Shown here piece by piece: positions 1 through 40,211 of a stretch of 40,716 nt of DNA. Source of the stretch: Bifidobacteriaceae bacterium. Its GTDB lineage: Bacteria > Actinomycetota > Actinomycetes > Actinomycetales > WQXJ01. The stretch spans positions 1-40,716 of the forward strand of contig JAIRRT010000192.1 in assembly GCA_031255835.1 (NCBI GenBank), read 5' to 3'. The position numbers and the translations under genes are program-made. A model generated the notes under the pieces. The model was not told where the DNA came from and made no database searches. It saw only the letters and a program-made list of their open reading frames with translations. Numbering within the stretch: the first letter of the stretch is position 1; each line of letters begins with the position of its first letter.

Positions 1-2430
1 GCTGATCTGCCCGCCGTCCGCTGGCGCCACCCACGATTCCTGCGAAGGCGTCAGCGGGGCTGGGCCAGCGGCCTGGGTTACCGTCACCGACCTGCTCGTG
101 GTGCCGGCCGTCACCGTGAACGTCGCCTTGCGCGTTGCCGACGTCGGGTTGGGGCTGACGCTGAGCACAACATCACGGCCTGTCATGCCTTCCATGTCCG
201 ATGCCGTCAACCATGGTTCAGAGGTTGTAGCCGACCACAGCACCCGGTTTGTGCTCACCGAAAGCGAGACAGACCCGGCGGACGATGGCGCAGACCAGGT
301 GGTCCTTCCCAACGTCACCGTGGCTGTGGTTGCGGCCGCCTGGGTCACCGTGATGGTTCGGGTGACCTGGCCTGCCGAAAGGGTGATTGTGCCGACCCGG
401 CGAGCGCCGGTGTTGCGTTCGGCTACCCACTGGACCTCGTCATCGGACACTCCGCTTGTGGGCGTCATGGTCAACCAGTCCGAATCGCTGACTGCCGACC
501 AGCTTGACTGGTTGGTGGTGATCCGCGGGGTGGTCACCGATCCGGTCGAGACCGGCGCCCAGCTGAGCAGGGACGATGTGATTGTGGCAGCTGCCTGGGA
601 GACGGTCACGTCACGCGAAGCCGTGCCGGCTGGCCCTGTGGCCGTGACGGTGATCTTGCCGGACCGAGCCGCGCCTGGGTTGGGCGCCGCGGTGATCGCG
701 ATGGTCTGGCCGCTCGTGCCCACCGACGGGGTGACGCTCAACCAGCTTTCGCCCGATGCCGCCATCCAGTTCGCCTGGTTGGTGGTCACCGTCGCGCTGG
801 CAGATCCGCCGCCAACTGGCGCCGCCCACGTGATCCGCGACACGGTCACAGTGGGCCTCGGTGCAGCGGTCTGATTGACCGTCACCTGGCGCGTGAGGCT
901 CCCAGTCACTCCGACCACGGACACGGTGATGTGCCCGGTCCTGGCCGCCGCGACGTTGGCTGCCGCCGTGATCTGCATGTCCACACCAGTCCCGCCGCTT
1001 GCGGGGCTAACCGTCAGCCAGCTCGCGTCCGACGTTGCAGTCCAGCTTGCTTGGTTGGTGGTCACCCGCGACGTGGTGGTCGCTCCCCCAACCGCAGCCG
1101 ACCATGTTGTGCGCGACAGCGTGAGGGTTGGGCGTGGAGCTGTTGCCTGGGTAACTGTCAGCGTCCTGGTGGCTGTGCCGCCGGCCGAGACGGTCACCCT
1201 GGCCGTGCGGGTCGAGGATGGGTTGGGCTGTGCCTGAAGTTCAAACGACCCACCAGACGGACCGGACGTTGGTGTGACTGTCAGCCAACCTGCGTCCGAC
1301 GTTGCCGTCCAGTCAGCCTGGTTTGTTGTGACAGTCGCGCTGACCGATCCGCCTGCGCCTGGGGCTGACCATGTTGTCCTGGACACCGACACCGTTGGGG
1401 ACGGGCCCTGGGCGATATTGACCTGGGCTGTTGCAGCGCCTGAGGCGAAGGCGACGATCCCACTGCGCAGGGAGGTGCCTGGGTTGGCGCGTGCCGTCAA
1501 CATGACTGTGGCGCTGCCCGTGCCCGAGTTTGGCGAGGCAGTGACCCAGGCTGGCGTGCTTGTCACGCGCCAGGGCCGCCCGTTGGTGGTCAGGTTGACC
1601 GTGGTGGTCGAAGCCGAACCATATGGCGCCCAGAGTCCTGGCGTGACGCTCAGGGTATCGACCTCGAGTTGGCTGATCGACAACGTGGCGGACAACCCGC
1701 CACCGGTCACGGTGACCGCTCCGGTTCTGTTAGCACCTGTGCCGTTGGCGCTGACCGAGACCCGCACCTGTGTGCGGCCGGCGCTGCCGGCCGCTGGCGT
1801 GACACTGACCCACGCAGGCGCTGATGCGACGGTCCACGGCACGTTGGAGATGACCTCCACCGCTACAGCCTCGCCTTGACTGTCGGCCACGAAGGCCGTC
1901 CTGCTGAGCGACAAGTCGGCTGGCGCCTGGGCCACGGTCACTGTTTGGGTGTAGCCGCTGGCGGTAGTCAGCTCAATCGAACCGGTCCGGGCCTGGCCAT
2001 TGTTGGCTTGCGCACTGACGCTCACCTCTCCGCCAACGCCGCTGGTCGGTGAGACCGTCACCCAGGTGGGCGCAGAGACCAGAGTCCATGTGTTCCCGGC
2101 CAGCAAGCTCACGTGGAAGGTCTCCGAGCCACCTTGCGGTGGCAAGGTGATCGAGGCGGGGATGACCCTCATGGGCGGGCCGCTTTGCAGCACCGTGAGT
2201 GTGGCCGTCGCGTTTCCAGAACCAAACACCACCAAGCCGTCCCGTACTTGGTCATCGTTTTGCGTGACCGCAATCTGCACCGGTCCGCTCAGACCGGATG
2301 CTGGCGTGACGGTGATCCAATCTGGCGCAGAGACCAATGACCAGCTGCCATCAGTGCTGACGTTGACGGACAGTTGCTGTGCTGAATAGTCCGCCGTCCA
2401 CAGGGACCGTGACAATGCCAGTGTCTGCTC
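1..2430 (-). repeat. Coding tandem array of BACON/Ig-like domains of about 85-95 aa inside the protease gene. There are 9 complete copies and 1 partial copy here, plus one more upstream of the PPC-like domain at about 2790-3030.
   Basis: A recurring pattern is seen in the translated minus frame. Examples: TVSVSRTTWSAPGAGGSVSATVTTNQADWTATSDAGWLTVTPTSGPSGGSFELQAQPNPSSTRTARVTVS, TLTLSRTTWSAAVGGATTTSRVTTNQASWTATSDASWLTVSPASGGTGVDMQITAAANVAAARTGHITVS, and TVTVSRITWAAPVGGGSASATVTTNQANWMAASGESWLSVTPSVGTSGQTIAITAAPNPGAARSGKITVT. Assignment to the BACON family is from memory of the motif, not from an HMM search. Confidence 0.6.
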
Positions 2431-4608
2431 CCGCGTGACAGTTATTGTGTATGGCAGTTGCGTGGTGTTGTTCGCACTTTGCGAGAAGTGGCTAATCGCG
2501 ATGTAGTAGGTCTGACCGGCAGAAAGGGTGCGACGGATTTCGAACTGCCGGCCGCCTGCACTGTCGTCATCGAAGGTGATGGTGTTTCCCAGTGAGTCAT
2601 ACAGGGTTCCAAAAACGTCACCCGACGCGGCAGAAGTGAATGTCCATGCAGTCGAGTTCGGAGGAGTGAAGCGCCACCAGTCGACATCGTCGCCTCGCCC
2701 AAGCACACCGTCTACTCGTCCAGAACTGCCGTTGAACGCGAACTCGCAGGTGGTGTTTGGCGTGTCCAAACAGTCATCCAAGTACGCCTCCTGGTTGACC
2801 ACGATGGTCGCGGTCTCCGAGCCAGAGGTCACCGTGACGTGGCCCGTCCTGGAGCCACCCGGATAGGCCTGCGCTGTGATGCTCATCACGCGGCTGTCCG
2901 TGCCAACCTGGCTGGCCACAAGCCACGGGCTAGTGGACGTGATGCTCCACGGCGCACCGCCACTGTCCACAAAGACACGCCTTGTGGCGCCATATTCGGG
3001 CACATCCCAGAAGTCCTGGGAAAGGTTTAGGCCGAAGCGAGTGGATGCCATATCGACTCGCACCGTGGCAGATTCTTCAGCTATCTCCTCCACAGTGATC
3101 CGTAGCGCGCCAGTCTTGGAGAAGAACGTCTCACCCTCGTGGAAGAACATGTTCCCTGATTGGCTGTAATTGGCCGGGAACAGAACCACCATGTTGGGGT
3201 CATTCCTGTCCTGGTATGGCACATGGCGACTGATGGCGACTGACCGGCTCTCCACTGTGTCGTAGTAGTCAACCCAGTAGGTCACCGATCCGCCGTACGA
3301 ATTGTCGATGATCCTAAGCGCCTGCGGATCGTCTCGATCCGGCGTGCGGGCGGGGGTCAGAGTGTATCTGGCACCGTTTCTTGGACCCATCACAGTTGTG
3401 TAGCCGGAGCCGTCCTCGATGACGCCCTCCATGTACTTCTGTTCGCCCATGATCGAGTGCTCCATCCTGATGGTGGAGGAGCCCATGATGTTGTAGATGT
3501 TGCCGTAGTTGGAGACCGAACAGGCATCCGTTCCCGTTTTTTCTCCGTCCATATGGCCGGCTGGGCACTGCATGCTGCCTGAGTGAGCCAGACCGAAGTT
3601 GTGGCCCATCTCGTGCACAAACGTGGACAGCGGATAGGTAGGTGCTCCGGTGTCGGCGTTCGCGCCGACGATGGCGTGCAAGGAGCCGGGTGAGGCGAAG
3701 TTGGTCAGCAAGTAGCCGACTCCGGCGTATCCCGTATAGCAGGATCCTGTGTTCTCATCGCTGGGGGACAGGATCACAAGGTGTCGCTGTGCAGAGTTAT
3801 AGGTCCAGTTGTAGGCCTGTTGCCCATCCGCCCTGATCGCGTCGGTGGCTTCAGACTGGATTGTGGCCAAGGCTCCGGTGCAGTGGGCTTCGCTCTGAAC
3901 TGCCACGACGTCGTTCCAGTTGTAGCTGAACCCGGAGACCGCGCCGCGCGATTCTGTGCCCCACCACTGTGAGATGCCGTTGACGTATGCGTCGAGCTGG
4001 TTCTTGGACCAGAACACTCCTCGCCCGTCCTTCGACATAAACACGAAGTGCAGCGTGTGCTGATACGGGCCAGGCAAGTCGGCCATGGCATCGGCCGGCG
4101 ATTCGAGCACTGTGGCATCTTGCACACTGACCGGCTCATCGGAGTCGGCTAGGGCATCCAGCAGCACGGAGGCAACTTCCTCGGACTCGTCCAGGGGTGC
4201 GTCATCGGACACCTCAACTGCTGGGGCCTGGTCGATGTCCGCCAGGGCCTCGGGGGGCAACTCAGCGATCAGATCGCCCGGCACCTCCACAACGGCCTGG
4301 ATGATGTCGCCAGATGCGACTGAGGCATCGACGCTGTCAGATTCGACGTCGATGAACTGCTCGGAGCCGAACATGATCACGGCTTCGGAACTGTCGGGGA
4401 CAACAAGGAACTGGCCGGTCAAGGCGACATCTACGCCATCGGCCACCAGGTCATCCACAATGCCAGCTGCTGGTGGCGCGGCGGATTGCGCGGCCAACGC
4501 CGGCAGCCCGCCAATTCCGAGGGCGAGCGCCGCGGCGGCCATGATCGAGGGGATACGGAAAGCTTTCGACGCACCAAAACGCGTCAGGGAGCCAGGGACA
4601 TTCTTCAT
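1..4608 (-). CDS. Secreted multidomain zinc metalloprotease (metzincin HExxHxxGxxH) with a PPC-like domain and at least 10 BACON/Ig-like repeats. The C-terminus runs off the left window edge.
   Basis: The ORF is absent from the supplied track because it has no stop codon in the window. My manual reverse-complement translation from ATG 4608-4606 stays open in one frame down to position 1 (1536 codons). I checked for in-frame TTA/CTA/TCA over 1-100, 841-900, 1201-1280, 1861-1980, 2341-2460 and 2860-3330 and found none. The N-terminus MKNVPGSLTRFGASKAFRIPSIMAAAALALGIGGLPALAAQS looks like a Sec signal peptide. The zinc motif HEMGHNFGLAH lies at 3583-3615. A PPC-like segment DDVDWWRFTPPNSTAWTFTS...AGQTYYIAISHF lies at about 2480-2700. 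It is followed by repeats of the pattern W.A.SD..WLTVTP.SG. Confidence 0.8.
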   Translation of the reverse strand, partial: MKNVPGSLTRFGASKAFRIPSIMAAAALALGIGGLPALAAQSAAPPAAGIVDDLVADGVDVALTGQFLVVPDSSEAVIMFGSEQFIDVESDSVDASVASGDIIQAVVEVPGDLIAELPPEALADIDQAPAVEVSDDAPLDESEEVASVLLDALADSDEPVSVQDATVLESPADAMADLPGPYQHTLHFVFMSKDGRGVFWSKNQLDAYVNGISQWWGTESRGAVSGFSYNWNDVVAVQSEAHCTGALATIQSEATDAIRADGQQAYNWTYNSAQRHLVILSPSDENTGSCYTGYAGVGYLLTNFASPGSLHAIVGANADTGAPTYPLSTFVHEMGHNFGLAHSGSMQCPAGHMDGEKTGTDACSVSNYGNIYNIMGSSTIRMEHSIMGEQKYMEGVIEDGSGYTTVMGPRNGARYTLTPARTPDRDDPQALRIIDNSYGGSVTYWVDYYDTVESRSVAISRHVPYQDRNDPNMVVLFPANYSQSGNMFFHEGETFFSKTGALRITVEEIAEESATVRVDMASTRFGLNLSQDFWDVPEYGATRRVFVDSGGAPWSITSTSPWLVASQVGTDSRVMSITAQAYPGGSRTGHVTVTSGSETATIVVNQEAYLDDCLDTPNTTCEFAFNGSSGRVDGVLGRGDDVDWWRFTPPNSTAWTFTSAASGDVFGTLYDSLGNTITFDDDSAGGRQFEIRRTLSAGQTYYIAISHFSQSANNTTQLPYTITVTREQTLALSRSLWTADYSAQQLSVNVSTDGSWSLVSAPDWITVTPASGLSGPVQIAVTQNDDQVRDGLVVFGSGNATATLTVLQSGPPMRVIPASITLPPQGGSETFHVSLLAGNTWTLVSAPTWVTVSPTSGVGGEVSVSAQANNGQARTGSIELTTASGYTQTVTVAQAPADLSLSRTAFVADSQGEAVAVEVISNVPWTVASAPAWVSVTPAAGSAGRTQVRVSVSANGTGANRTGAVTVTGGGLSATLSISQLEVDTLSVTPGLWAPYGSASTTTVNLTTNGRPWRVTSTPAWVTASPNSGTGSATVMLTARANPGTSLRSGIVAFASGAATAQVNIAQGPSPTVSVSRTTWSAPGAGGSVSATVTTNQADWTATSDAGWLTVTPTSGPSGGSFELQAQPNPSSTRTARVTVSAGGTATRTLTVTQATAPRPTLTLSRTTWSAAVGGATTTSRVTTNQASWTATSDASWLTVSPASGGTGVDMQITAAANVAAARTGHITVSVVGVTGSLTRQVTVNQTAAPRPTVTVSRITWAAPVGGGSASATVTTNQANWMAASGESWLSVTPSVGTSGQTIAITAAPNPGAARSGKITVTATGPAGTASRDVTVSQAAATITSSLLSWAPVSTGSVTTPRITTNQSSWSAVSDSDWLTMTPTSGVSDDEVQWVAERNTGARRVGTITLSAGQVTRTITVTQAAATTATVTLGRTTWSAPSSAGSVSLSVSTNRVLWSATTSEPWLTASDMEGMTGRDVVLSVSPNPTSATRKATFTVTAGTTSRSVTVTQAAGPAPLTPSQESWVAPADGGQIS

Positions 4609-12501: not shown

Positions 12502-13034
12502 GCCCCGCAACGCCCCCATCCACTGGCGCGCCAACCGGCGGGCCCACCGCCGGGCCCACGCCCACCTCTGACCCCCCACCCACCCGGCCGGGTCTGCCGC
12601 CCAACCCTTACAACCCGCTGGCCTGGATCATTGGCGAGCCCTCCATAGGTGAGGGCACCTGGATTGGCGCGTTCACCGTCATCGACGGCTCCGGAGGACT
12701 GCAGATTGGCTCGGGGTGCGACATCGGCGCTGGCTGCCAGATCTACACCCACTCCTCCGCACGGCGCTGCGTGTCCGGCCGGCGCTACGGCGAAGTTGAC
12801 CGCAAGCCGGTGACCATGGGCGACAGGGTCTTCATGGGCCCCGGCGCCATGGTGTTCATGGGTGTCGAGGTGGGCGATGAAGCCGTCATCTGCGCAGGTG
12901 CCATGGTCACCCGCTCGGTTCCCCCACGCACAATCGTGGCGGGCGTGCCAGCCCGGCCAATCGGCATCGTCCAATTCGATGACCCGGCCAGCCCGCGATT
13001 TGTCCTCACCGACCCACCAACTGGGCAGATCTGA
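12498..13034 (+). CDS. Hexapeptide-repeat (LbH) acyl/acetyltransferase with a Pro-rich N-terminal extension
   Basis: The ORF is 178 aa. Its ATG overlaps the stop of the epimerase gene (ATGA). Hexapeptide repeats are visible: IGEGTWIGAFTVIDGSGGLQIGSGCDIGAGCQI and VFMGPGAMVFMGVEVGDEAVICAGAMV, followed by VAGVPARPIG. The first 40 aa or so are low-complexity Pro/Thr/Gly. Confidence 0.8.
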   Translation: MSPATPPSTGAPTGGPTAGPTPTSDPPPTRPGLPPNPYNPLAWIIGEPSIGEGTWIGAFTVIDGSGGLQIGSGCDIGAGCQIYTHSSARRCVSGRRYGEVDRKPVTMGDRVFMGPGAMVFMGVEVGDEAVICAGAMVTRSVPPRTIVAGVPARPIGIVQFDDPASPRFVLTDPPTGQI

Positions 13035-14227
13035 TGCGCATCGCCGTTGTCAACAACTTCTTCCCGCCGCGGGTGGGTGGCTCGTCCCACCTGTCCCACA
13101 CCCTGGCCACGCGCTACGCCCAGGCCGGCCACAAAGTCCTGGCCGTCACCGCCGCCTACCGCGATGCCCCCACATTCGAGGCGTTCGATGGCGGTCACAT
13201 AGTCCGCCTCCCGGCTTTCCAGATCCCCGAGACCCCTCTGGCCTTGAACTTCGACATCAGCTTTGCCACCAGGCCGTCGCTGCCGCGCCGGTTGGCTCGG
13301 ATCCTCGACGCGTTCAAGCCCGACGTCATCCACCAACACGGCCAGTTTTTCGACCTGACCTGGGCAAGCGGACTGTATGCGCGGCGGCGCGGCATCCCGA
13401 CGCTGCTCTCGGTGCACACTCGGCTGGAGAACCCGACGGCGCTGTATCGCGGCGCACTGCGGTACATCGACGCCTGCTTGGTGCGCCCGGCTCTGCTGGC
13501 GTACCGGCCAAACATGGTGGTCATGGACCGGCTGATGCGCAGCTACATCACCGAGCGCTACCCCGGCGCCTACCGCGAACTGTTCGATATCCCCGTCGGG
13601 ATTGACCCGGTGGCGGCGGCAGGTGGGGACGGCGGCGTTGGGCGGGCCAAGCTCGGGCTTGAGCCGGATGTGCCGCTGATTGTCTCGGTGGGCCACGTCA
13701 TCCCGCTGCGGGATCGGGTTGCCCTTGTCGAGGCCCTGCCGCATGTGCGCCGCCACATCCCGCAGGTCAAGCTGGCCGTCATCGGCGAGGTGTATTACGA
13801 CGTGTTCTCCCGGCGCGCGGCCGAGCTTGGTGTGTCCGATTCCGTCATCCAAGTTGGCCCGGTTCCCAAGGCTGACGTGCCGCATTACCTGGCCGCCGCC
13901 TGGGTGGAGAGCCACGAGCAGGGCTACGGCCTGGGCACCGCGACGCTGGAGGCGATGGCCGCCGGGGTGCCGGTGGTGGCCGCCGCCCGGCCCGACAACT
14001 TTGCGCCACTGGCGTTGACTGACCGCCGCGAACTGTTCCTCGCCCCGCCTGGCGATACCCCCGCCCTCGCCGCCGCGCTGACCGAGGCGCTGTCCAACCG
14101 GGCTCTGGCCGGGCAGGTTGGGCTTGCCGGCCAGGAGTTCGCCTTGGCCCACTTCACACTCGATGCCGTCACAAACCAGCACCTCGACGTGCTTGGCGAG
14201 TTGGCCAAGGAGGCGAGCACAGCGTGA
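13034..14227 (+). CDS. GT4-family (GT-B fold) glycosyltransferase
   Basis: The ORF is 397 aa. Its ATG overlaps the upstream stop (TGATG). The N-terminus MRIAVVNNFFPPRVGGSSH and the C-terminal motif ESHEQGYGLGTATLEAMAAGVPVVAA are typical of Glycos_transf_1/GT4 enzymes. Confidence 0.85.
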   Translation: MRIAVVNNFFPPRVGGSSHLSHTLATRYAQAGHKVLAVTAAYRDAPTFEAFDGGHIVRLPAFQIPETPLALNFDISFATRPSLPRRLARILDAFKPDVIHQHGQFFDLTWASGLYARRRGIPTLLSVHTRLENPTALYRGALRYIDACLVRPALLAYRPNMVVMDRLMRSYITERYPGAYRELFDIPVGIDPVAAAGGDGGVGRAKLGLEPDVPLIVSVGHVIPLRDRVALVEALPHVRRHIPQVKLAVIGEVYYDVFSRRAAELGVSDSVIQVGPVPKADVPHYLAAAWVESHEQGYGLGTATLEAMAAGVPVVAAARPDNFAPLALTDRRELFLAPPGDTPALAAALTEALSNRALAGQVGLAGQEFALAHFTLDAVTNQHLDVLGELAKEASTA

Positions 14228-15411
14228 ACCGCACCGATATTGCTGTGGTGGGGGCCGGCATCGTCGGCTTGGCAGTGGCGGAGGCTTTGTCCCGTCAAGG
14301 TCGCCATGTGACAGTACTGGAGAAGGAACCGACGATGGCGGCCCACCAGACTGGCCGCAATTCTGGGGTTATCCATTCGGGCATCTATTACGCCCCGGGC
14401 AGCTTGAAGGCGCGGTTGTGCCGGGCGGGGGCGGCGTCGATGGCGCGGTTCGCTGAGGAGCACGGTGTTGCTCGCGGACCGAGCGGCAAGGTGATTGTGG
14501 CGACGCGGCCGAGCGAACTGCCTGCTCTGAGGGCGCTGGCGGCCCGGGCCGGGGCCAACGGGATCGAGGCGCATCAGGTGACGCGCGCACAGGTGGCCGA
14601 ACTTGAGCCGCATGTTGGCGCCATCGCCGGCCTGCATTTGCCCGGCACGGGGACCATCGATTACTCCCAGGTTTGCCAGGCGTTGGGCGCGCTGGTGGTC
14701 AGCCAGGGCGGCGAGGTGCTGCTGGGGCAGCGGCTGGTGGCGGCGCGGACGGTGGGCGAGACGGTCGAGATCAGCCTGGCGGACGGCTCGCGGCTCGCGG
14801 CGAATGGCCTGATCAACTGCGGTGGGCTGCATTCGGATGAGATCTGCTCGGCCTGCGGCGTGGACCCAGGCGTCCGGATTGTGCCGTTCCGGGGCGAGTA
14901 CTACGAGCTGGCGCCTGACAGGCGGGACCTGGTGCGCAGCCTGGTCTATCCGGTGCCTGACCCGCGGTTCCCCTTCCTCGGGGTGCATCTGACGCGCATG
15001 GTTGACGGGTCGGTTCACGCCGGGCCGAATGCTGTGCTGGCGCTGGCGCGGGAGGGGTACACCTGGCGCGATATCCAGCTGGACGATCTAGCCGGCACGC
15101 TGACATGGCCCGGATTCTGGCGCCTGGCCGCGCGCTATGCACCCGCCGGCGCCAAGGAGATGGCCCGCTCCGCATCGATGCGCCTGTTCGCCGCGTCCCT
15201 GGTCCGCTTGGTGCCGGAGATCGAGCCCAGCGACCTCCGCCCAGCCCCCGCCGGAATCCGCGCCCAAGCCCTAACCGCCACCGGCGCCCTAGTAGACGAC
15301 TTCCTAATCCGCCGAGCCCCCCGCCAAATCCACGTCCTAAACGCCCCCTCCCCAGCAGCCACAGCCGCCCTAGAAATAGCCCACCACCTATCAACCCAAT
15401 CCCCCACCTAA
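14224..15411 (+). CDS. lhgO: FAD-dependent L-2-hydroxyglutarate oxidase/dehydrogenase (LhgO/YgaF family)
   Basis: The ORF is 395 aa. Its GTG start overlaps the GT4 stop (GTGA). It carries the FAD motif DIAVVGAGIVGLAVAEAL, then HQTGRNSGVIHSGIYYAPGSLKA, FRGEYYEL and FLGVHLTRMVDGSVHAGPNAV, which match the LhgO family as I recall it. The gene symbol is given at family level only. Confidence 0.75.
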   Translation: MNRTDIAVVGAGIVGLAVAEALSRQGRHVTVLEKEPTMAAHQTGRNSGVIHSGIYYAPGSLKARLCRAGAASMARFAEEHGVARGPSGKVIVATRPSELPALRALAARAGANGIEAHQVTRAQVAELEPHVGAIAGLHLPGTGTIDYSQVCQALGALVVSQGGEVLLGQRLVAARTVGETVEISLADGSRLAANGLINCGGLHSDEICSACGVDPGVRIVPFRGEYYELAPDRRDLVRSLVYPVPDPRFPFLGVHLTRMVDGSVHAGPNAVLALAREGYTWRDIQLDDLAGTLTWPGFWRLAARYAPAGAKEMARSASMRLFAASLVRLVPEIEPSDLRPAPAGIRAQALTATGALVDDFLIRRAPRQIHVLNAPSPAATAALEIAHHLSTQSPT

Positions 15412-15547
15412 CCCCACCACCCGCGCCGCTCGCGCCGGCAGCGCCGGCACCCGCCCCCAACGGGCCACCGCCGCAACTGCTCAAAACACCACCTCACCTC
15501 CGGTTTCCCGTCCCGTTGTGAGCACTTTCGGTTGTCGCTGTCACCCG

Positions 15548-15823
15548 TCCGCCGATGGCGTTCAGACGTTGGGGGTGTTCGCCCTGTAGCGCGTGCGTTG
15601 GGTAGGGGTTCGATGCCGCTGGCGGCATGCCTTTTGGAGCCGGTCACCGAATTCTTCTGGGGATGATGCGTGTGGTCCAGGGTTTCGTGATGTCGGTGGG
15701 TTTGGTGGTGGTCCGGTTCCCAGACGTCGCGTGGTTCGGATCCCGGACCTGGGTGCGGACAAGGAGGTGTGCGGGCGTGCCTCCTCCAACCTCACCATCC
15801 AGTGTGTGGACGGCCTGATCGGA
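15548..15823. repeat. Head module of a modular intergenic repeat element (left copy), homologous to 39766-40211
   Basis: Blocks of nucleotide identity are shared with the right-hand copy. The shared blocks are gccgatg.cg.tca.acgttggg, gtaggggttcgatgccgctggcggcatgcctttt, ggtcaccg, tctggggatgatgcgtgtggtc...ttcgtgatgtcggtgggtttggtggtggtccggttcccagacgtcg.gtggttcggatcc, and acctcacc immediately before the tandem array. Confidence 0.8.
15613..15635 (+). terminator. Possible intrinsic-terminator-like hairpin inside the head module
   Basis: The inverted repeat is ATGCCGC-tg-GCGGCAT (15613-15628), followed by gcc and TTTT (15632-15635). The sequence is identical in the right-hand copy (39828-39850). 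The stem is short and the U-tract is only 4 nt long, so this call is weak. Confidence 0.3.
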
Positions 15824-16130
15824 GGTGCTTAACTGACCAATTGAGCCGCCTGGCTCGCCAATTGGTCACTTAAGCACATCCACCTCGACGGGCCTGAGCA
15901 CAAGCGGGCAGGTGAACGGCCTGGTCGGAGGTGCTTAACTGACCAATTGAGCCGCCTGGCTCGCCAATTGGTCACTTAAGCACATCCACCCCGACGGGGC
16001 TGAGCACAAGCGGGCAGGCGAACGGCCCGGTGGGGAGTGCTTAACTGACCAATTGAGCCGCCTCCCACGCCAATTGGTCACTTAAGCACATCCACCTCGA
16101 TGGGGCTGAGCACGGCAGGGCACGCAGGAA
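15824..16130. repeat. Tandem array of 3 units of 106 bp, each containing an imperfect palindrome of about 53 nt (left locus)
   Basis: The landmark gcttaa recurs at 15827, 15933 and 16039, giving a period of exactly 106 bp. In unit 1 the left arm GTGCTTAACTGACCAATTG is at 15825-15843, the loop agccgcctggctcgc is at 15844-15858, and the right arm CAATTGGTCACTTAAGCAC is at 15859-15877. The third unit degenerates after about 16115. Confidence 0.9.
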
Positions 16131-16428
16131 GACTGAGCGAACTTGGGAACTGCTGGACCAGAGGCAGCATCCCCAGACAATCCAAGGTGACCATCTCTGT
16201 CGGTCTTGCCGCCAGGAGCACTGACCCACTACGCACCGACGGCGTTACCCAACGGAGCACCCAGGTTTGGACGGCATCGGCGACCGGAAGTGCTCAGCCC
16301 TGGGCTCGGGGTGGGGGGTTCTACTTGGGGGCGGGCGTGAGGTGGGGGGTTGTGGGGGGGAAGGGGGATAGGGTGGCTTGCGGGGCGGCTTTGGGTGCCG
16401 CTAGGGGACTAGGACAGGAGCACTCCAC

Positions 16429-17277
16429 ATGTCTATTGGGTTCATTGGCGCGGGCAACATGGCTGGCGCGATCATCCGCGGGATTGTCGGATCGGGGTAT
16501 GCGCCGGCTGCGCGGATATTGGCTTACGACCCTCATGCGCCGACTCTGGACGCGCTTGTTGAGCAGACCGGGATTGTGCCGGTGGCCGGGAATCCTGAGG
16601 TGATTGCGGCCGATACAACCGTTGTGCTGGCGGTAAAACCGCAGGTCATCCCGCGGGTCATGGAGGAGGTGGCTGCACAGATTGTTGCTGCCAGGCCCCT
16701 GGTCATCTCGATTGCCGCGGGCACGCCAATCCAGTCTCTGGAACGCTGGCTGGGCCCTGAGCAGCCAATTGTCCGCGCCATGCCGAACGTCAACGCCCAG
16801 GTGCGCCAAGCCGTCACAGCAGTGGCCGGAAACGGCGCCACCACGCCGGAGCAACTCGCCACGGCCAAGGCGATCTTCACCTCGGTTGGCGAGGTGGTCG
16901 AGTTGGATGAGTCGCTGTTCCGGGCGTTCGCGGCGTTGGCCGGCTCCTCCCCAGCCTGGACGTTCCTGTACATCGACGCACTCGCCCGCGGTGGCGTGGC
17001 AGCCGGGATGCCCAAAGCCCTGGCGCTGCAAATCGCCGCGAAAGCGGTTGCCGGCTCTGCTGCCCTCCTGGCCGATGGCGGCGCTCACCCTTGGGAGTTG
17101 ATCGACCAAGTGTCCTCCCCGGCGGGCACAACAATCGCTGGGTTGACCGTCCTGGAGGAGAAGGGCCTGTCAAGCGCTGTGCTTGGCGCCGTCGCCGCGA
17201 CCATGCGGCGTGAAGAGATGATCGCCCGGAAGAACCGCCCGCCCCGCCGCCCACGAAACCGCCCCGAGATCCCGTGA
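16429..17277 (+). CDS. proC: Pyrroline-5-carboxylate reductase
   Basis: The ORF is 282 aa, with AGGAG 9 nt upstream of the ATG. It has the NADP motif IGFIGAGNMAGAII, then VLAVKPQ, RAMPN and the C-terminal motif VSSPAGTTIAGL. A basic Pro/Arg tail is present. Confidence 0.9.
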   Translation: MSIGFIGAGNMAGAIIRGIVGSGYAPAARILAYDPHAPTLDALVEQTGIVPVAGNPEVIAADTTVVLAVKPQVIPRVMEEVAAQIVAARPLVISIAAGTPIQSLERWLGPEQPIVRAMPNVNAQVRQAVTAVAGNGATTPEQLATAKAIFTSVGEVVELDESLFRAFAALAGSSPAWTFLYIDALARGGVAAGMPKALALQIAAKAVAGSAALLADGGAHPWELIDQVSSPAGTTIAGLTVLEEKGLSSAVLGAVAATMRREEMIARKNRPPRRPRNRPEIP

Positions 17278-27060: not shown

Positions 27061-30000
27061 ATGGCCGGCGTGATTCCCTCGCTGCGTGCCGTCCTGGGCG
27101 AGCGCGTCTTGGTGGCCGATGGCGCAATGGGGACCGAGCTGATGGCCGCGGGTTTGACGCCCGATGACTTTGCTGGGCACGAGGGTTGCTACGAGTACCT
27201 GAACATCTCCCGGCCGGACATTGTGGCCGGGGTTCATGCCGCCTACCTGGACGTTGGCGTCGATGCAGTTGAGACCAACTCGTTCGGGGCCAACCCATCC
27301 AACCTTGGCGAATACGACCTGGCGGACCGAATCGAGGAGCTGTCCAGGCGCGCGGCGCTCATAGCCAGGGACGTGGCCGATTCCTATGACACCCGGCGCT
27401 GGGTGTTCGGTTCGCTCGGCCCAGGCAGCTGGCTGCCGTCCCTCGGTGCAACAACGTTCACTCGCCTGCGGGACGCCTTTGAGACCCAAGCCACCGGACT
27501 GCTTGATGGCGGAGTTGACCTGCTGCTGATCGAGACCGCGCAGGATCTGCTGGCCGCAAAAGCCGCCGTGATAGGGGCCAGGCGCGCCAAGTCACGGGCA
27601 GGGCGGGACGTGCCGATCATCGTCCAGATCACCGTTGAGACCACGGGAACCATGCTCCTTGGCACAGAGACGATGGCGGCCCTCACCTCACTAGCTGGGC
27701 TCGGCATCGACGGGATGGGCCTGAACTGTGCCACCGGACCCGATTCGATGCGCGAGCACCTGAGCCAACTGGCCGCACATCTGCCGGTGACATCGGTGAT
27801 GCCGAACGCCGGGATGCCTGAGCTGACCGACCAAGGCGCCGTCTACCATCTGACGCCAACCCAGCTGGCCGACGCTCTGGACGAGTTCACTGCGGAACTG
27901 GGATGCGGGATCGTCGGGGGGTGTTGCGGCACCACGCCAGCGCACCTGCGTGAGGTGGTCAAGCGGGTGTCGGGGCGGGAGCTGAACCGGCCGGCCATGG
28001 ACCCGCGCCCGTCCGCAGGTTGGGTGTCCAGCCTGTTCACAGCGGTGCCGTTGAGTCAGGACGTCAGCTATCTGGCCGTGGGCGAGCGGGCCAACGCGCA
28101 GGGTTCCAAAGCGTTCCGTGAGGCGCTGGCAGGCGATGATCTGGACCGCTGTGTCGATCTGGCGCGGGCACAGGCAGCGCGCGGGGCGCACGTCATTGAC
28201 CTGAGCGTGGACATGGTTGGGCGCGATGGGCCAGCCGATATGACCGCGCTGGCGGCCCGGCTGGCCACGGCGACGAGCCTGCCGATCATGGTGGACTCGA
28301 CCGACCCGCCCACCCACGTGGCGGCGCTGGAGCAGTTGGGCGGAAAGTCGATCCTCAACTCGGTCAGCTTCGAGGACGGCGGCGCGCGGCTGGCGGAGCT
28401 GTTGCCGCACATCCGCGAGCACGGCGCTGCGGTGGTGGCGCTGACCATCGATGAAACCGGCCAGGCGCGTGAGGCTGCCCACAAGGTGCAGGTGGCGCAA
28501 AGGCTGATAGATGCGCTGGTGAGCGGTGGGGTTGACGTGCGGGACGTCATCGTCGATCCGCTGACATTTCCGGTGGGGGCGGGCGAGGAGACCAAACGCG
28601 ACGGGCTGGAAACTCTGGCCGCGATCCGGGCCATTCGCGCAGCCCACCCGCAGGTTCACATCGGGCTCGGCGTGTCCAACATCAGCTATGGTCTGGCGCC
28701 GGCCGCCCGGTTGGCGGTCAACTCGGTGTTCCTCGACATGGCGCGGCAGGCGGGGCTTGACGTGGCGATTGTCGATCCGGCGCGGATTGAGCCGCTGGAC
28801 CGGATCGATCCGCAGTTGCGCCAAGCGGCAGTGGACCTGATTGAGGACCGTGACAGGCCGGCAGCGTTGGCGCAGTTGCTGGCCGCCGGCGCCCCACCCC
28901 CTCAAACCGACGGTGCCGGCCCTCCCCTCTCCCCGCCGGAGCGGCTGACCGCACGGATTGTGCAGGGGCGGACCGCTGGGCTGGAGGAGGACATGGCGGA
29001 GGCGTTGACGCAGCTCAGCGCTGTCGAGGTGCTGGACGGCGTGCTGTTGCCGGCCATGGCTGAGGTGGGGAAGGCGTTTGGTGAGGGCCGGCTGCAACTG
29101 CCGTTTGTGCTGCAAGCGGCCGAGGCGATGAAGGCGGCCATCGCGTGGTTGCAGCCGCACCTGCCGCGAAGGGACAGGACCAAGGGAACCGTTGTGCTGG
29201 CGACGGTGCGCGGTGACGTGCATGACATCGGCAAGAACCTGGTGGACATTGTGCTGTCCAACAACGGATATCGCGTGATCAACCTGGGGATCAAGCAGCC
29301 GCTCTCGGCCATGTTGGACGCTGCCCAGGAGCATGGCGCTCAGGCGATTGGCATGTCCGGGCTGCTGGTCAAATCGGTCGAGGTGATGCGGCAGAACCTG
29401 GCCGAGATGAACGCGCGCGGCCGGCTGTGGCCGGTGATCCTGGGTGGGGCGGCGCTGACCAGGCAATACGTTGACGGCGAGCTGCGTGGGCTCTATCAAG
29501 GCGAAGTCCGCTATGCCAAAGACGCCTTCGAGGCGCTGGGTGTGCTCGCTGATTGGGAGGGTGCAGGTGGTGGGGTTGGTGGGGAAAGTGACGTTGGTGA
29601 GGTTGGTGAGGTTGGTGAGCGAGTTGATGCCGACGATGCCGGTGACTCTTCAGATCAGCCGCCAACTCAGCCTGTGCCGCCAAGAAGCAGGGGGTCAGTT
29701 CCGGCGGCGCCTGTTCCCAGTCCGCCGTTCTTTGGCGCGCGGTTGGCTGAGGGCATAGCCCTGTCCGATTACCTGCCTCACCTGGATGAACGCGCTCTGT
29801 TGACCGGCCGGTTTGGGTTGCGAGCGGTGACAGGTGACCCGCGCAGCGTCGAGGAGGTCATCGAAGAGGAGGGACTGCCCAGGTTGCGGGCGTTGATCGA
29901 CAAACTGCGCGCCGAGCGCCTGGCCCAAGCACGCGTTGCCTACGGGTTCTTCGCCGCCCACGCCGAGGGTGACGCCCTGCTGATTGAGGACGGCCAAACG

Positions 30001-35323: not shown

Positions 35324-38300
35324 ATGAAACCGATTACCGCAACACGCACTGCCTTGGCGGCGGCCGCCGCCATGGCGCTGGTCCTGTCGGGCGGAGCCCC
35401 GGCCATGGGCTGGTCCACCACGACAGACATCGAAGAGATGGAGGCGAGGCACATCGCCATCGCCGAGGAGGCCGCGGCCGAGTCGATTGTCTTGCTAGAG
35501 AACTACGGCAACGTCCTGCCACTTGCCCCCGGCGGCAACATCGCCATTTTCGGCCCAGGCGCCGTGCGCAACTACCCAACTGGGACCGGTTCCTCGGCGA
35601 TGACGGGCATCCGGTACACCGGCGCGCTTGGCATGTCAACCATTGAGGGCGCCCTGGCGGATGCCGGCTTCACTAATACGGCATCAGCCGCATACAACAC
35701 TGCTCGCAACTCCAGGTTGAGCGCCATTCCGGCGATGGGCTACTGGGGCTTGCACACATTCAATCCGCCATCGAACTACTCAAACGCTGACGCAGTGATG
35801 ACAGATCAGAACGGTCTGGCCGAGCCCACGGCTCCGACAGACACAGCGGTCTACGTCCTGCTGCGCAACTCAGGTGAGACCTATGACAGGGTTCTCGCCC
35901 AGAGCTACTACCTCACCCAGGCAGAGAAAGACAACATTGCACTGCTCGGCCAGACCTACAAGAACGTTGTTGTGGTTCTGTACGTGCCAGGTGTGACGGA
36001 TACCGACTTCTTCCGCGAGATCAACGCCGATCAGTCCATCCGCGATCCCGAAGGCGGCCTGCCGCTCGATGCCCTGGTCAACGCCGGCATCCCCGGCCAA
36101 GAGGGCGCTGAGGCGATTGTCGATGTCCTCACCGGCCAGGTCACGCCCTCTGGCAAGACTGCCGATACTTGGGCCGCGGATTATTCGCTGTACCCAGCAG
36201 CTCCTACCTGGGCAAATAACGATGGCGATGCCTATGACGAGGTTTACACCGAGGGCATCTACGTTGGTTACCGTTACTTCGATTCCTTCTACAAGCAGAT
36301 CGAGATAGTTCCAGGCGATCCGGATGCCTCTGTCAGCTATCCGTTCGGCTTTGGTCTTTCATACACCAGCTTCGACATCGACACGCTTTCAGTTGTTGGC
36401 GATCCTGATCAGGTAACAGTCAGTGCTCGCGTTACAAACACTGGCGCAACCTATTCGGGTAAAGAGGTTGTCCAGGTTTACGCCTCGGCACCGCAGACTG
36501 GTCTGGACAAGCCCTACCAGGAGCTGGTCGGATACGCCAAGACCGGCACACTCGCTCCAGGCCAATCCGAGGTTGTCACCATCTCGTTCGACACTGACAA
36601 CCTGTCCTCCTATGACCCGGCACTGGCTGCCTACACCCTCGAGGCCGGGGAATACCCGATCCGTGTTGGCAACTCCTCCCGTTCCACTGAGGTGGCGGCC
36701 GTGCTGACAGTGGCGCAGAACGTCATCGTGCAGCAGCTGGCCAACCAGCTCGACAACGGCGTTGTTCCGAACGAACTTGAGTCGGATCCAGCTGACTTCT
36801 TCACCTATCCAGGTGAGGCGGCCGAGATTGCTGCTGCGCCGCGTATGCCGCTGAACATGGTCGGCTTCACTGCGCCGAACAATGCCTCGCCGACGGCTGT
36901 GAAGACCGTTGCGATCAGCCCCACTCACCCGATGGCGATCTCTCAGGGCACCATGATTGCTCCGGTCTCGACCTACCTGACCCTGGCCGATCTGATGGAT
37001 TGGCGTGGCACCGGAGGCAGCTATCCTGCGCTTCCGGGCGAGCGGATTTCGCTGGTCGATCCTGCGCCTCCCAGCGCGACGCTGTTCGATGTCGCCAAGG
37101 GCCAGGTCAGCCTTGAGTCGTTTGTTGCCTCGATGAGCGTTGAGGAACTCGCTGCTGCGGCCGTTGCCGGCCAGGCGAGTGGCGCGACCACCCCATATGC
37201 CCGTGGAGCAGCTGGCTACCTGCGGCACAACGAGGCAAAGGGCATCCCTGTGATGGCCTTCAATGACGGCCCGAGCGGTCTGAACGGTTCGACTTCGTTC
37301 AACCTCAACGGCACCAAGTATCAGCGGGTTGTCGCGTACCCCTCAGGCACCAACATTGCCCAGATGTGGAACGTCGATCTGGCTGAGGCAGTCGGCCGGG
37401 CCATCGGTGAAGAGATGGAAGATATGGGCGCAATGACCTGGCTGGCTCCAGGCGCCAACATCCACCGCGACCCGCTGTGCGGCCGCAACGTCGAGTACTA
37501 CTCGGAGGATCCGCTGCTGTCCGGCATGTCCGGCGCTGCGACCACCATCGGCCTGCAGTCCGTCCCCGGCGTCGGGGTGTCCGTCAAGCACTTCGCTGCC
37601 AACAACCAGGAGGCCGAGCGCGAGGGGAATGACAACCAAATCTCCGAGCGCGCGCTGCGTGAGATCTACCTGCGCAGCTTCGAGATCATCGTGCGTGGCG
37701 CACAGCCGATGTCGATCATGAGCTCCTACAACATGATCAACGGCACCTACACCGCGGCCGATTATGAACTGCTGACCGACGTCCTGCGCAACGAGTGGGG
37801 CTTCGACGGCTTCGTCATGACTGACTGGGGCGGCAACCGCGCCGGCGTTATCAACACCATGTATGGCGGCAACAACGTCCAATCGCCTGGCGGCAACGGC
37901 CCGCTCAATGCGATCATCGGCGGCGTTGCTCCGGCGGATCCGCTCTGGCAGGCCAACGGCCTTCCGCAGGTGCGTCAGACTGAGTCCTACGGTGCCGCCC
38001 CGGCGTACAACTGCTTCTGGTTGGCGCTGGGCGACATCGTCCCGATGGCAGGCGGACCGCTGGTCGAATCCCACCAGGTCAACGGGACAATCGCCGCGGC
38101 CACCACCAACACTCTGAACAACTGGGTCGCCGCCGCAGAGCGTGCCGATCAGTTCTCCGGAGTGCCGGCTGGATCAATCCAACTGGTGCAGGAAAACGGC
38201 TACTACACCGTCAACATCTACGGATTCAAGGGCCACTCCATCAGGCTCGGCGACGTCCAGAAGAACGTCATCGAGGTCCTGAAGGTTGCGATGCGGTCGC

Positions 38301-39652
38301 TGTCCTTCGCCCAGCTGGCTGACCTCAAGGGCGTCAGTGGCATTGCTCCTGCGTCCTACACCGGCATCCACGCCGCCACCCTCAAGCCCTACCTCTCCAA
38401 CGACTTCGAGGCTGCCACCCAGTGGGCACTTCGGGTTCTGGAGTCGCTGACCATGGTTGGCGAGCTGTATGAGGGCCAGGCTCACCGCTACACCCCGGCT
38501 TCGTTCGCGGAACTGGAAGCAGCGATGACCCAGGCGAGGGCACTGCTGGCCATCACCGGTCCGGTCCCGGCCAACTCGGTAGTTTGGGCACAGTCCCAGC
38601 TCGAGGCCGCCATCGCCGGTCTGGTTGAAGGTGTGGACACCTCCACACTGGAGGCGCTGATCGCTCAGGCCGAGGACATTCTGGCCAATCCCGATGGCTA
38701 CCTCTCAGCTGGTCTGCCGGCACTCGCGGCGGCGCTGGCCGTTGCTCAGGCTGCTCTGGCCGATCCAGGGCTGACCCAGACCGGAGAGACCGCTGCATCG
38801 GCCGCATTGGCTGAGGCGCTGTCGAACGTGATGCCGAAGGGCGACAAGACCGGCCTGAACGCGCTCATTGCTGCTGTCGGTGGCCTTGATCCGCAGCGCT
38901 TCACGCCTGCGACTTGGGCTCCGGTTCAGGCTGCTTTGGCTGCTGGCGGGATTGTTTCTGCCGATCCAGAGGCGTCGATGATTGACGTCGAGAATGCCTT
39001 CGCTGCGCTGGATGCGGCCATTGGCGATCTGGTTCTGCGGGCGAGCAAGGCGGGTCTGGCCTCTGCGGTCAGCGTCGGCAACACGATCCTCGCCTCGGCC
39101 GCAAGCTATGTGCCGTCCACGATCATCGGGCTGGCCGAGCTTGTTCTGGCCGGTGAGGGGATCTTGGCCGATGACGACGCAACCCAGCAGGAAGTCGAGG
39201 CCGCTCACACCGCGCTTGTCGTGGCCATCGGGCGGGCCAAGCTGATGCCTGTCACCCGGGCCGCGCCACAGTCGCTGGCAGCAGTTGCGCTGGTGGTAGG
39301 CGCGGCAGCCTCGCCCGCCGAGGCCGCCGAGGCGATCGAAGCCGCCGCAGATGAGGATGCAGCCGCTGGCGATGCCGCTCCTGCAGCCTTCATCAAGGCG
39401 TCGGCACCGAAGATCGTCGGCGTGGCAAAGGTTGGGCGCAAGCTCAAGGCGAAGACACCGGGTTGGTCCCCGGCGCCATCGTTCACCTACCAGTGGTACC
39501 GGTCCGGCAAGGCGATAGCCAAGGCGACAAAGGCGACCTACAAGGTGACCAAGGCTGACAAGGGCAAGCGCCTGTCAGTCAAGGTCAAGGCCGCCAAGCC
39601 CGGCTACAAGTCCATAGCCAAGGCCTCAGCCAAAACCAAGCGAGTCCGCTAA
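35324..39652 (+). CDS. Secreted GH3-family glycosidase with permuted domain order, FIVAR-like helical repeats and a C-terminal Lys-rich Ig-like domain
   Basis: The ORF is 1442 aa with signal peptide MKPITATRTALAAAAAMALVLSGGAPAMG. The GH3 alpha/beta-sandwich region comes first (IVLLENYGNVLPL...PGQEGAEAIVDVLTGQVTPSGKTADTW...YTEGIYVGYRYFD...YPFGFGLSYTSF). An Fn3-like region follows (VTVSARVTNTGATYSGKEVVQVYAS). The GH3 TIM-barrel region comes afterwards (GIPVMAFNDGPSGLN...KHFAANNQE...SIMSSYNMINGTY...WGFDGFVMTDWGG). After about aa 1050 come 4-5 helical repeats of the FIVAR type (e.g. TPATWAPVQAALAAG...VENAFAALDAAIGDL). The protein ends with FTYQWYRSGKAIAKATKATYKVTKADKGKRLSVKVKAAKPGY. Confidence 0.85.
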   Translation: MKPITATRTALAAAAAMALVLSGGAPAMGWSTTTDIEEMEARHIAIAEEAAAESIVLLENYGNVLPLAPGGNIAIFGPGAVRNYPTGTGSSAMTGIRYTGALGMSTIEGALADAGFTNTASAAYNTARNSRLSAIPAMGYWGLHTFNPPSNYSNADAVMTDQNGLAEPTAPTDTAVYVLLRNSGETYDRVLAQSYYLTQAEKDNIALLGQTYKNVVVVLYVPGVTDTDFFREINADQSIRDPEGGLPLDALVNAGIPGQEGAEAIVDVLTGQVTPSGKTADTWAADYSLYPAAPTWANNDGDAYDEVYTEGIYVGYRYFDSFYKQIEIVPGDPDASVSYPFGFGLSYTSFDIDTLSVVGDPDQVTVSARVTNTGATYSGKEVVQVYASAPQTGLDKPYQELVGYAKTGTLAPGQSEVVTISFDTDNLSSYDPALAAYTLEAGEYPIRVGNSSRSTEVAAVLTVAQNVIVQQLANQLDNGVVPNELESDPADFFTYPGEAAEIAAAPRMPLNMVGFTAPNNASPTAVKTVAISPTHPMAISQGTMIAPVSTYLTLADLMDWRGTGGSYPALPGERISLVDPAPPSATLFDVAKGQVSLESFVASMSVEELAAAAVAGQASGATTPYARGAAGYLRHNEAKGIPVMAFNDGPSGLNGSTSFNLNGTKYQRVVAYPSGTNIAQMWNVDLAEAVGRAIGEEMEDMGAMTWLAPGANIHRDPLCGRNVEYYSEDPLLSGMSGAATTIGLQSVPGVGVSVKHFAANNQEAEREGNDNQISERALREIYLRSFEIIVRGAQPMSIMSSYNMINGTYTAADYELLTDVLRNEWGFDGFVMTDWGGNRAGVINTMYGGNNVQSPGGNGPLNAIIGGVAPADPLWQANGLPQVRQTESYGAAPAYNCFWLALGDIVPMAGGPLVESHQVNGTIAAATTNTLNNWVAAAERADQFSGVPAGSIQLVQENGYYTVNIYGFKGHSIRLGDVQKNVIEVLKVAMRSLSFAQLADLKGVSGIAPASYTGIHAATLKPYLSNDFEAATQWALRVLESLTMVGELYEGQAHRYTPASFAELEAAMTQARALLAITGPVPANSVVWAQSQLEAAIAGLVEGVDTSTLEALIAQAEDILANPDGYLSAGLPALAAALAVAQAALADPGLTQTGETAASAALAEALSNVMPKGDKTGLNALIAAVGGLDPQRFTPATWAPVQAALAAGGIVSADPEASMIDVENAFAALDAAIGDLVLRASKAGLASAVSVGNTILASAASYVPSTIIGLAELVLAGEGILADDDATQQEVEAAHTALVVAIGRAKLMPVTRAAPQSLAAVALVVGAAASPAEAAEAIEAAADEDAAAGDAAPAAFIKASAPKIVGVAKVGRKLKAKTPGWSPAPSFTYQWYRSGKAIAKATKATYKVTKADKGKRLSVKVKAAKPGYKSIAKASAKTKRVR

Positions 39653-39756
39653 CTCACCCAGGGGCGCCCCCAGGCCCACCCGGCCCAGGGGGCGCCCCTG
39701 CAAAACTCACCACCCAAGGCGCCCCCCAGGCCACCCGGCCCAGGGGGCGCCCCCGC
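39653..39756. repeat. Direct repeat (2 copies, about 53 bp) built from GGGGCGCCCC palindromes, immediately after the GH3 stop
   Basis: The landmark ctcac recurs at 39653 and 39706. The sequence GGGGCGCCCC or a near-variant occurs four times (about 39661, 39689, 39718 and 39743). Confidence 0.8.
39660..39699 (+). terminator. Strong GC hairpin downstream of the GH3 gene (terminator-like, no U-tract)
   Basis: The left arm AGGGGCGCCCCCAGG (39660-39674) pairs with the right arm CCAGGGGGCGCCCCT (39685-39699) at 14 of 15 positions, with a 10-nt loop. It starts 8 nt after the stop codon. A second, similar hairpin lies in the next repeat copy. Confidence 0.45.
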
Positions 39757-39765
39757 ACCCCCACC

Positions 39766-40211
39766 CACGCCGATGACGCTCAACGTTGGGTGCTCGGGTT
39801 GTGGTGCGGAGGTTGCGTAGGGGTTCGATGCCGCTGGCGGCATGCCTTTTGAAGGCGGTCACCGGAGTATCTGGGGATGATGGGTGTGGTCAGGGGTTTC
39901 GTGGTGTCGGTGGGTTTGGTGGTGGCCGGGCTATGCGACGTTCTTGCGCACCTGCCGCCTAGGGTCACCGGTTGCCGCCATCGTCGCGGTGGTTGGTTCA
40001 GTGGTGTTGGCGGCAAGACTGATCGAGGTGGTCACCGATGTCTTCTGGGGATGATGCGTGTGGTCAGGGGGTTCGTGATGTCGGTGGGTTTGGTGGTGGT
40101 CCGGTTCCCAGACGTCGAGTGGTTCGGATCCGATACGTGGCCGCGGACAGGCAGGTGTGTCGAGTGTGTCTCCCCCCACCTCACCCCTCAGCCGTGGTTG
40201 GCCTGGTGAGG
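39766..40211. repeat. Head module of the modular intergenic repeat element (right copy), with an internal duplication of about 173 bp
   Basis: It shares the same conserved blocks as 15548-15823. The block ggtcaccg...tctggggatgatg.gtgtggtc...tcggtgggtttggtggtgg occurs twice, with GGTCACC at 39857 and 40030 (spacing 173 bp). An extra GGTCACC lies at 39963. The hairpin plus TTTT at 39828-39850 is identical to 15613-15635. Confidence 0.8.

Follow-up and report, generated by a model that had tools for sequence, protein, structure and literature searches.

BOX elements are composite repeats of the form boxA-boxB(n)-boxC, in which the copy number of boxB varies and which fold into a stem-loop through pairing of A with C (PMC3049150); in Streptococcus suis, their terminal modules measure 115-133 nt (PMC3049150). 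BIMEs of Proteobacteria combine regularly spaced inverted REPs with other motifs and bind several proteins (gyrase, IHF), and REPs are read by their Y1 transposase (RAYT). Each REP is a palindrome of 20-40 nt carrying a GTAG or CGTC tag. To our knowledge, composite repeats such as BOX, BIME and ERIC have mostly been studied in Proteobacteria and Firmicutes, mosaic hairpin-array elements have hardly been documented in high-G+C Actinobacteria, and we know of none in uncultured termite-gut relatives of the Bifidobacteriaceae. Mycobacteria reportedly harbor intergenic tandem repeats between co-directional genes, the MIRUs, which Supply and colleagues are said to have described in 1997 with lengths of ~46-101 bp.

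The element that we report here is previously undescribed and lies between ordinary genes of an uncultured actinobacterium of the termite-gut type. The evidence comes from two loci and eight tandem units in one short-read metagenomic contig, and the window (the whole stretch of DNA that was analysed) is this entire contig of 40,716 bp. Its inner module is called U and its terminal module M (subtypes Ma and Mb), and the features of the two loci are as follows.

15549 to 15735, plus strand: M1, subtype Ma, directly 5' of the left array, with its core at 15621-15665 followed by a G+T-rich extension (direct repeats, alignments, core pattern).
15613 to 15636, plus strand: terminator-like hairpin in M1, ATGCCG-CTGG-CGGCAT followed by GCCTTTTG, ~200 nt after the stop codon of the lhgO-like gene (read from the sequence).
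15736 to 15805, plus strand: junction J from M1 to the first unit, moderately conserved between the loci, with compensating indels (alignment).
15806 to 16123, plus strand: left array of module U, with units L1 (15806-15911), L2 (15912-16017) and L3 (16018-16123) (TRF, unit alignment, BLAST of the unit against the window).
15825 to 15877: imperfect palindrome of L1, 53 bp, whose arms (15825-15843 and 15859-15877) flank a 15-nt centre and show the fixed C/G mismatch.
15931 to 15983 and 16037 to 16089: the equivalent palindromes of L2 and L3, respectively.
16153 to 16283, minus strand: M2, subtype Mb, directly 3' of the left array, with its core at 16168-16213 (BLAST against the reverse-complement leader, alignments).
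39768 to 39941, plus strand: M3, subtype Ma, ~115 nt after the stop codon of the GH3 gene, with its core at 39836-39879 (direct repeats, BLAST, alignment, core pattern).
39828 to 39851, plus strand: terminator-like hairpin in M3, identical in sequence to that of M1.
39972 to 40125, plus strand: M4, subtype Mb, in tandem with M3, with its core at 40009-40053 (direct repeats, BLAST, alignment, core pattern).
40126 to 40193, plus strand: junction J from M4 to the right array (alignment).
40194 to 40716, plus strand: right array of module U, with units R1-R5, of which R5 is cut by the contig end (TRF, arm search, unit alignment).

TRF detected an exact 106-bp period at 15806-16113 (2.9 copies, 93% matches, 0% indels) and a second one at 40200-40716 (4.9 copies), which reaches the last base of the window. 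Within each array, the left arm GTGCTTAACTGACCAATTG recurs at exactly 106 bp, starting at 15825, 15931 and 16037 on the left and at 40213, 40319, 40425, 40531 and 40637 on the right; the first-pass annotation of this DNA had read the spacing of the three left units correctly, placing each start one base before the arm. Because the window is a whole contig, the right array sits at an assembly break and contains at least five units. In every unit, an inverted partner of GTGCTTAACTGACCAATTG follows 34 nt downstream with an identical single C/G mismatch, and arm and partner together gave 16 matches on the two strands against 0 expected from 100 shuffles. The earlier description of 19-nt arms with one mismatch conserved in eight copies thus holds for all eight units.

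Site counts also agreed with the AT-rich hexamers noted earlier in this G+C-rich DNA. Each unit carries CAATTG twice and CTTAAG once, the G+C content of the arms is 42% (~65% for the window), and the arrays contain all eight CTTAAG sites and 16 of the 17 TTAA sites of the 40.7-kb window. Outside the arrays, we observed a single TTAA in ~40 kb, no CTTAAG and no GTTAAC; with the last two absent and TTAA nearly so, the arrays are the sole places with such sites. The arrays are non-coding, as stop codons occur in all reading frames and 106 is not a multiple of 3, and the first-pass annotation had rightly argued that the repeat cannot encode an in-frame protein repeat. ORFs of 48 aa on the minus strand of the array were rejected as genes, being a mechanical product of the 106-bp period.

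The 106-bp units form no more than the inner portion of a larger, modular repeat, whose module M had been missed by the first-pass annotation. M is 130-190 nt long and is present in four copies across the two loci, which were aligned together; its core, GGCGGCA-N10-14-GGTCACC-N6-9-TCTGGGGATG (24 specified bases), had four matches against 0 expected. The two Ma copies (M1 and M3) share an identical 32-nt stretch holding the hairpin, and the two Mb copies (M2 and M4) have GGCAAGAC at that place. The hairpin was not called by a consensus terminator scan because its T run consists of four T only. In three of the four M copies, the small hairpin is preceded at a distance of 7 nt by a GTAG, an observation that is suggestive at most. 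Another motif, GAGCAC, is carried by every U unit in a single copy (CTGAGCAC) and lies at the outer end of both M1 (15529) and M2 (16293, on the minus strand); three additional copies are found in the stretch leading from the left array to proC (~16215, 16256 and 16419).

BLAST within the window revealed that the stretch 3' of the left array is a reverse-complement copy of the 'leader' upstream of it, and the local alignment of M1 with inverted M2 scored 57, against 21 ± 2.5 in shuffles. With M1 before the array and an inverted M2 after it, positions 15545-16305 fold back on themselves as a single large structure (-403 kcal/mol, z = -10). The left locus is laid out as Ma-J-U3-Mb(inverted), and the right one as Ma-Mb-J-U (at least five units), the contig ending within the array. 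Since the M subtypes are common to both loci and M is duplicated at the right one, the element is a mosaic rather than a simple leader followed by an array. ORFs of 51-52 aa in the leader and of 34 aa entering the first hairpin were rejected as coding, their frame not being conserved because the two loci differ by compensating indels. No target-site duplication was visible at the ends of M. A larger palindrome extending into the outer C-rich and G-rich tracts was also rejected as not significant (26 vs 22 ± 3.5). The first of these tracts (15412-15500) lies just 3' of lhgO and is complementary to the second in composition, not significantly in sequence; the second (16308-16390) is a long G-run tract (GGGGTGGGGGG...GGGGGGG...GGGGG) just 5' of proC with possible quadruplex potential.

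Both arrays occupy long intergenic gaps 3' of plus-strand genes, in the same orientation and 24 kb apart. The left one is located between a gene for an lhgO-like FAD oxidase (14224-15411) and proC (16429-17277), the right element is found 3' of a gene encoding a 1442-aa GH3 protein (35324-39652), and all flanking genes are on the plus strand. The ORFs around and between the arrays correspond to ordinary chromosomal genes, encoding glycosyltransferases, sugar-modifying enzymes, a low-molecular-weight phosphatase, an S8 peptidase and an M20 peptidase, together with uppP, an mshC-like ligase, a PAC2 protein, metH and an ABC transporter. Among the window ORFs examined, there were no partition, cas, toxin, integrase, transposase or RAYT genes and no IS elements. 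A tRNA-derived att site was rejected, as the window contains no tRNA or tmRNA. Immediately 3' of the GH3 stop codon, ahead of M3, two tandem and very G+C-rich hairpins (GGCGCCCCC...GGGGGCGCC, 55-nt spacing, 39659-39757) resemble terminators without a T tail.

Alignment of the eight units showed where module U is constrained. Only one of 38 columns is variable in the arms, compared with 6 of 15 in the central loop and 22 of 53 in the linker (arms vs the remaining 28/68 variable columns, Fisher p = 7e-6), and the eight units differ by at least 34 substitutions and 0 indels. The arm sequence is therefore held constant while the rest drifts, and so is the length of the unit. L3 is the most diverged unit (80-86% identity to the others), with a diverged and truncated linker. 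R5 is 93-95% identical to L1 and L2, as near as to its own neighbours, and the units are thus not simply array-specific. The conservation confined to the arms argues for a protein that would read them, either as duplex or as hairpin and either as DNA or as RNA; protein recognition of the arms had been proposed in the first-pass annotation, and near-invariant arms beside a drifting loop and linker are consistent with it. The lack of indels in eight units is compatible with helical phasing (106 bp corresponds to ~10 turns).

Searches in sequence collections placed the element in no known family. The exact 19-mer arm had no match in 185,579 GTDB species genomes, the inner arms had none in JGI metagenome contigs (same project included) or IMG/VR, and the M-core pattern had none in species genomes, JGI metagenomes and viral contigs. 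Plasmids and phages gave no match (blastn, distant mode), and concatenated spurious ORFs of the array and leader, queried against 5.8 billion predicted proteins, yielded no further copy. Unit, leader and tail had no nhmmer match in 166 loci of relatives, and the loose pattern GACCAATTG-N-CAATTGGTC gave single chance matches only (L001-L107). A scan of the whole window with Rfam returned 0 matches at gathering thresholds; at E<=10, only miRNA-precursor models appeared, with 15-27 bits against thresholds of 65-100, which is noise. The first-pass annotation could assign the unit to no family, which agrees with Rfam and with all the collections scanned, and the Rfam match that would have counted against its view was not found at the gathering score.

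The best loci in the genome collection were from termite-gut-type bins, and a termite-gut lineage of this type has been described (PMC11707648). The nearest ProC proteins (72-76% identical) belong to 'Bifidobacteriaceae bacterium' MAGs with different upstream genes and no array, and no comparable repeats were detected when proC loci L269, L271 and L273 from relatives were scanned with TRF and for other repeats. LhgO has no close relative (best <=59% identical), no exact-protein matches were found for ProC, the GH3 protein or the low-molecular-weight phosphatase, and the C-terminus of the GH3 protein has no near-identical relative.

Because this anatomy matches that of composite interspersed repeats, we read the element as a new, sequence-unrelated family of that kind. 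More specifically, it would be an interspersed intergenic repeat family with a layout like that of BOX (A-B(n)-C) or BIME, whose arms are read sequence-specifically by a putative protein, a reading to which we give about an even chance of being correct. Of the alternatives listed in the first-pass annotation, a BOX-like modular element fits best, given the four copies of M, one of them inverted beyond the array.

The likeness to the BOX elements of S. pneumoniae and S. suis is one of architecture. Both are composite, non-coding and intergenic, with mutually pairing terminal modules flanking tandem inner modules, as is seen at the left locus, where M1 (plus) and M2 (minus) surround three U units; both fold as a whole into a large stem-loop, and in both the inner array would be expected to vary by slippage or unequal crossing-over. 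They differ in that there is no sequence similarity and that the host here is a high-G+C actinobacterium, not a streptococcus. Moreover, boxB is 45 nt long, whereas the 106-bp U forms a long palindrome of its own with near-invariant 19-nt arms, M also occurs in direct tandem (right locus), and no IS is known whose terminal inverted repeats match. For boxA, boxB and boxC alike, homology is implausible, since the G+C contents are very different and neither the arm nor the M core has a match in the species genomes, and the comparison is one of architecture only.

With the REP, BIME and REPIN repeats of Proteobacteria, the element shares inverted arms alternating at a short and a long regular spacing (in this element 15 and 53 nt), an intergenic position and a mosaic arrangement with other motifs, and the conserved arms of REP/BIME are known protein-binding sites. 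However, the 19-nt arms are neither palindromic in themselves nor tagged as REPs are, CGTC standing beside the stem (on the minus strand) in five of the eight units only, and the window contains no RAYT gene. MIRUs are likewise intergenic tandem repeats between co-directional genes of Actinobacteria, but MIRUs show no dyad symmetry and contain short ORFs that are coupled to their neighbouring genes; in the present units, a palindrome predominates and every frame contains stops. A CRISPR does not match the data either: the 53-nt intervals are homologous to one another, as the first-pass annotation maintained in setting aside a repeat/spacer array, even if the linker conservation that it reported is not strict (~80-85% identity outside the arms). 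As for integron attC arrays (CALIN), in which each palindrome has complementary R''/R' core sites (RYYYAAC / GTTRRRY) and cassettes lie between the sites, the left arm contains GCTTAAC but the right arm reads CTTAAGC instead of GTTAAGC, the fixed mismatch falling on the G, and the conserved, non-coding 53-nt intervals are not cassettes.

Under the interpretation as a composite interspersed repeat, U would be the tandemly amplifiable inner module, made of a hairpin palindrome and a linker, and M the terminal module. The element may have spread to several intergenic sites, probably including others than the two loci, via a trans-acting enzyme or recombination, and the copy number of U would shift through slipped-strand mispairing or unequal crossing-over. 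The 19-nt arms would be under purifying selection because a putative protein reads them sequence-specifically, and arrays 3' of genes, if co-transcribed, could in addition fold into highly stable stem-loops at the 3' ends of mRNAs. A further role there is plausible from the position after genes and the terminator-like hairpin of Ma. The contig break inside the right array is what is expected of a multi-copy repeat, and such an element, which breaks short-read assemblies as the contig end within it indicates, would serve as a strain-typing (VNTR) locus. Pointers to a specific, putative partner protein are the near-invariant AT-rich 19-bp arms in a TTAA-poor genome, the strict 106-bp period and the strand-asymmetric palindrome. 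Several points speak against this interpretation: the data comprise two loci of a single short-read contig, whereas dispersal across the genome is what defines interspersed repeats; the invariance of the arms exceeds the usual level for protein-contacted sites; the strict period, kept with 0 indels through at least 34 substitutions, hints at constrained spacing, which a selfish repeat does not need; and neither a transposase, a RAYT gene nor an IS was found in the window, nor any further copy in JGI metagenomes or predicted proteins.

A rather unlikely alternative is that the array acts as RNA, either as a plus-strand multi-hairpin non-coding RNA or UTR element (terminator, 3'-end stabiliser, RNase III sites), or after being cut into 106-nt protein-binding units (type III antitoxin, sponge). 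The whole unit folds as RNA into a ~33-bp stem (-49 to -50 kcal/mol, z about -4.5), all flanking genes lie on the same plus strand, and the terminator-like hairpin stands ahead of the leader in both loci. Nevertheless, folding is just as good for the minus strand, both as RNA and as DNA (-22 to -24 kcal/mol for the 76-nt hairpin as DNA, z about -7). The inner pairing of GAGCC with GGCTC around a 4-nt loop, which the first-pass annotation had attributed to each unit, is present in five of the eight and broken in L3, R1 and R3, so that apical pairing is lost in 3/8 units. Single-base variants of the inner stem (R3 A>G, R2 C>T) leave G.U on the plus strand and A.C on the minus strand, in the direction expected of a plus-strand RNA; assigning the strand from these counts was rejected as too weak, there being two inner-stem events only. 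Covariation, for which the first-pass annotation had proposed a test, was absent among the eight units, where a single pair showed a double change and the signal equalled that of shuffled controls because the stem is nearly invariant. A purely structural RNA predicts compensatory change, not invariance of sequence. In addition, a consensus scan found neither a sigma-70-type promoter nor a canonical terminator, and Rfam gave no match. Known type III antitoxin repeat units measure roughly 34-47 nt, compared with 106 nt here, and the left array is followed by inverted M and then proC, with no toxin-like ORF or gene downstream.

It is improbable that the units are iterated duplex-DNA operators phased on one helical face, forming a centromere of the sopC/parC type or a loading site that structures the chromosome. 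The absence of any indel in eight units with a period of ~10 turns favours this view, and invariant, inverted, AT-rich arms around a 15-bp centre that varies in sequence and is fixed in length are the pattern of dimeric half-sites. With sopC and parC, the arrays share tandem units of equal length that each contain an inverted repeat. The analogy with sopC drawn in the first-pass annotation is nevertheless not supported: no parA/parB-like or other DNA-binding genes were found among the ORFs examined or adjoining the arrays, the neighbours being chromosomal housekeeping genes, the plasmid and phage collections yielded no match, and the unit is 2.5 times longer. The arrays moreover occupy two loci 24 kb apart on the chromosome, as parts of a larger repeated mosaic with inverted M modules that are absent from centromere arrays, and the half-sites are 34 bp apart centre to centre, unusually far for one dimer.

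The arrays might also be a dedicated cis-acting device instead of selfish filler, which we hold to be a doubtful proposal, suggested by the invariant AT-rich arms, the strict 106-bp period and the fixed strand-asymmetric mismatch. A putative protein would then read two sequence-invariant, asymmetric arms (as hairpins or operators) every 106 bp, the C.C/G.G mismatch distinguishing the strands, and the device could be a chromosome-organising or loading site, or a transcript of leader and array could be cut into 106-nt hairpin RNAs partnering a protein encoded elsewhere. If true, the version with 106-nt hairpin RNAs would be a new actinobacterial system resembling type III antitoxins or sponge RNAs. 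Finally, a tandem structure or copy number created by short-read metagenome assembly is very unlikely: the contig does end inside the right array and no second assembly confirms the array, but the left one has unique sequence on either flank, mutual differences at 4-17 positions show that its units are not collapsed copies, and the unit was found independently at two loci with locus-specific variants.

Regarding the composite repeat, one further assembly bears on its variation between strains. An independent Logan contig (SRR14710884, L188) is 99.75% identical to window positions 12704-15447 (2744 nt) and encodes an identical LhgO protein, stopping short of the array; it diverges completely 36 nt after the lhgO stop codon, right after the palindrome GCCGGCAGCGCCGG, so that intergenic content varies between close strains. 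Its divergent 43-nt tail had no significant match to the window (score 22, in the chance range). The switch could stem from an empty site, from replacement of the segment or from an assembly tip; the tail was rejected as a demonstrated 'empty site', as it matches nothing and the contig stops there.

Two observations concern repeats elsewhere in the window. The minus strand of positions 1-4200 contains an ORF of more than 1400 aa that runs off the contig start; repeats of ~267-276 nt inside it (441-1332) suggest a large surface protein with Ig-like domains in tandem. The plus-strand ORFs listed in the same region look like antisense artefacts. Within the coding region of metH, a 9-bp tandem repeat (TGGTGAGGT) is present in 5.8 copies at 29568-29619.
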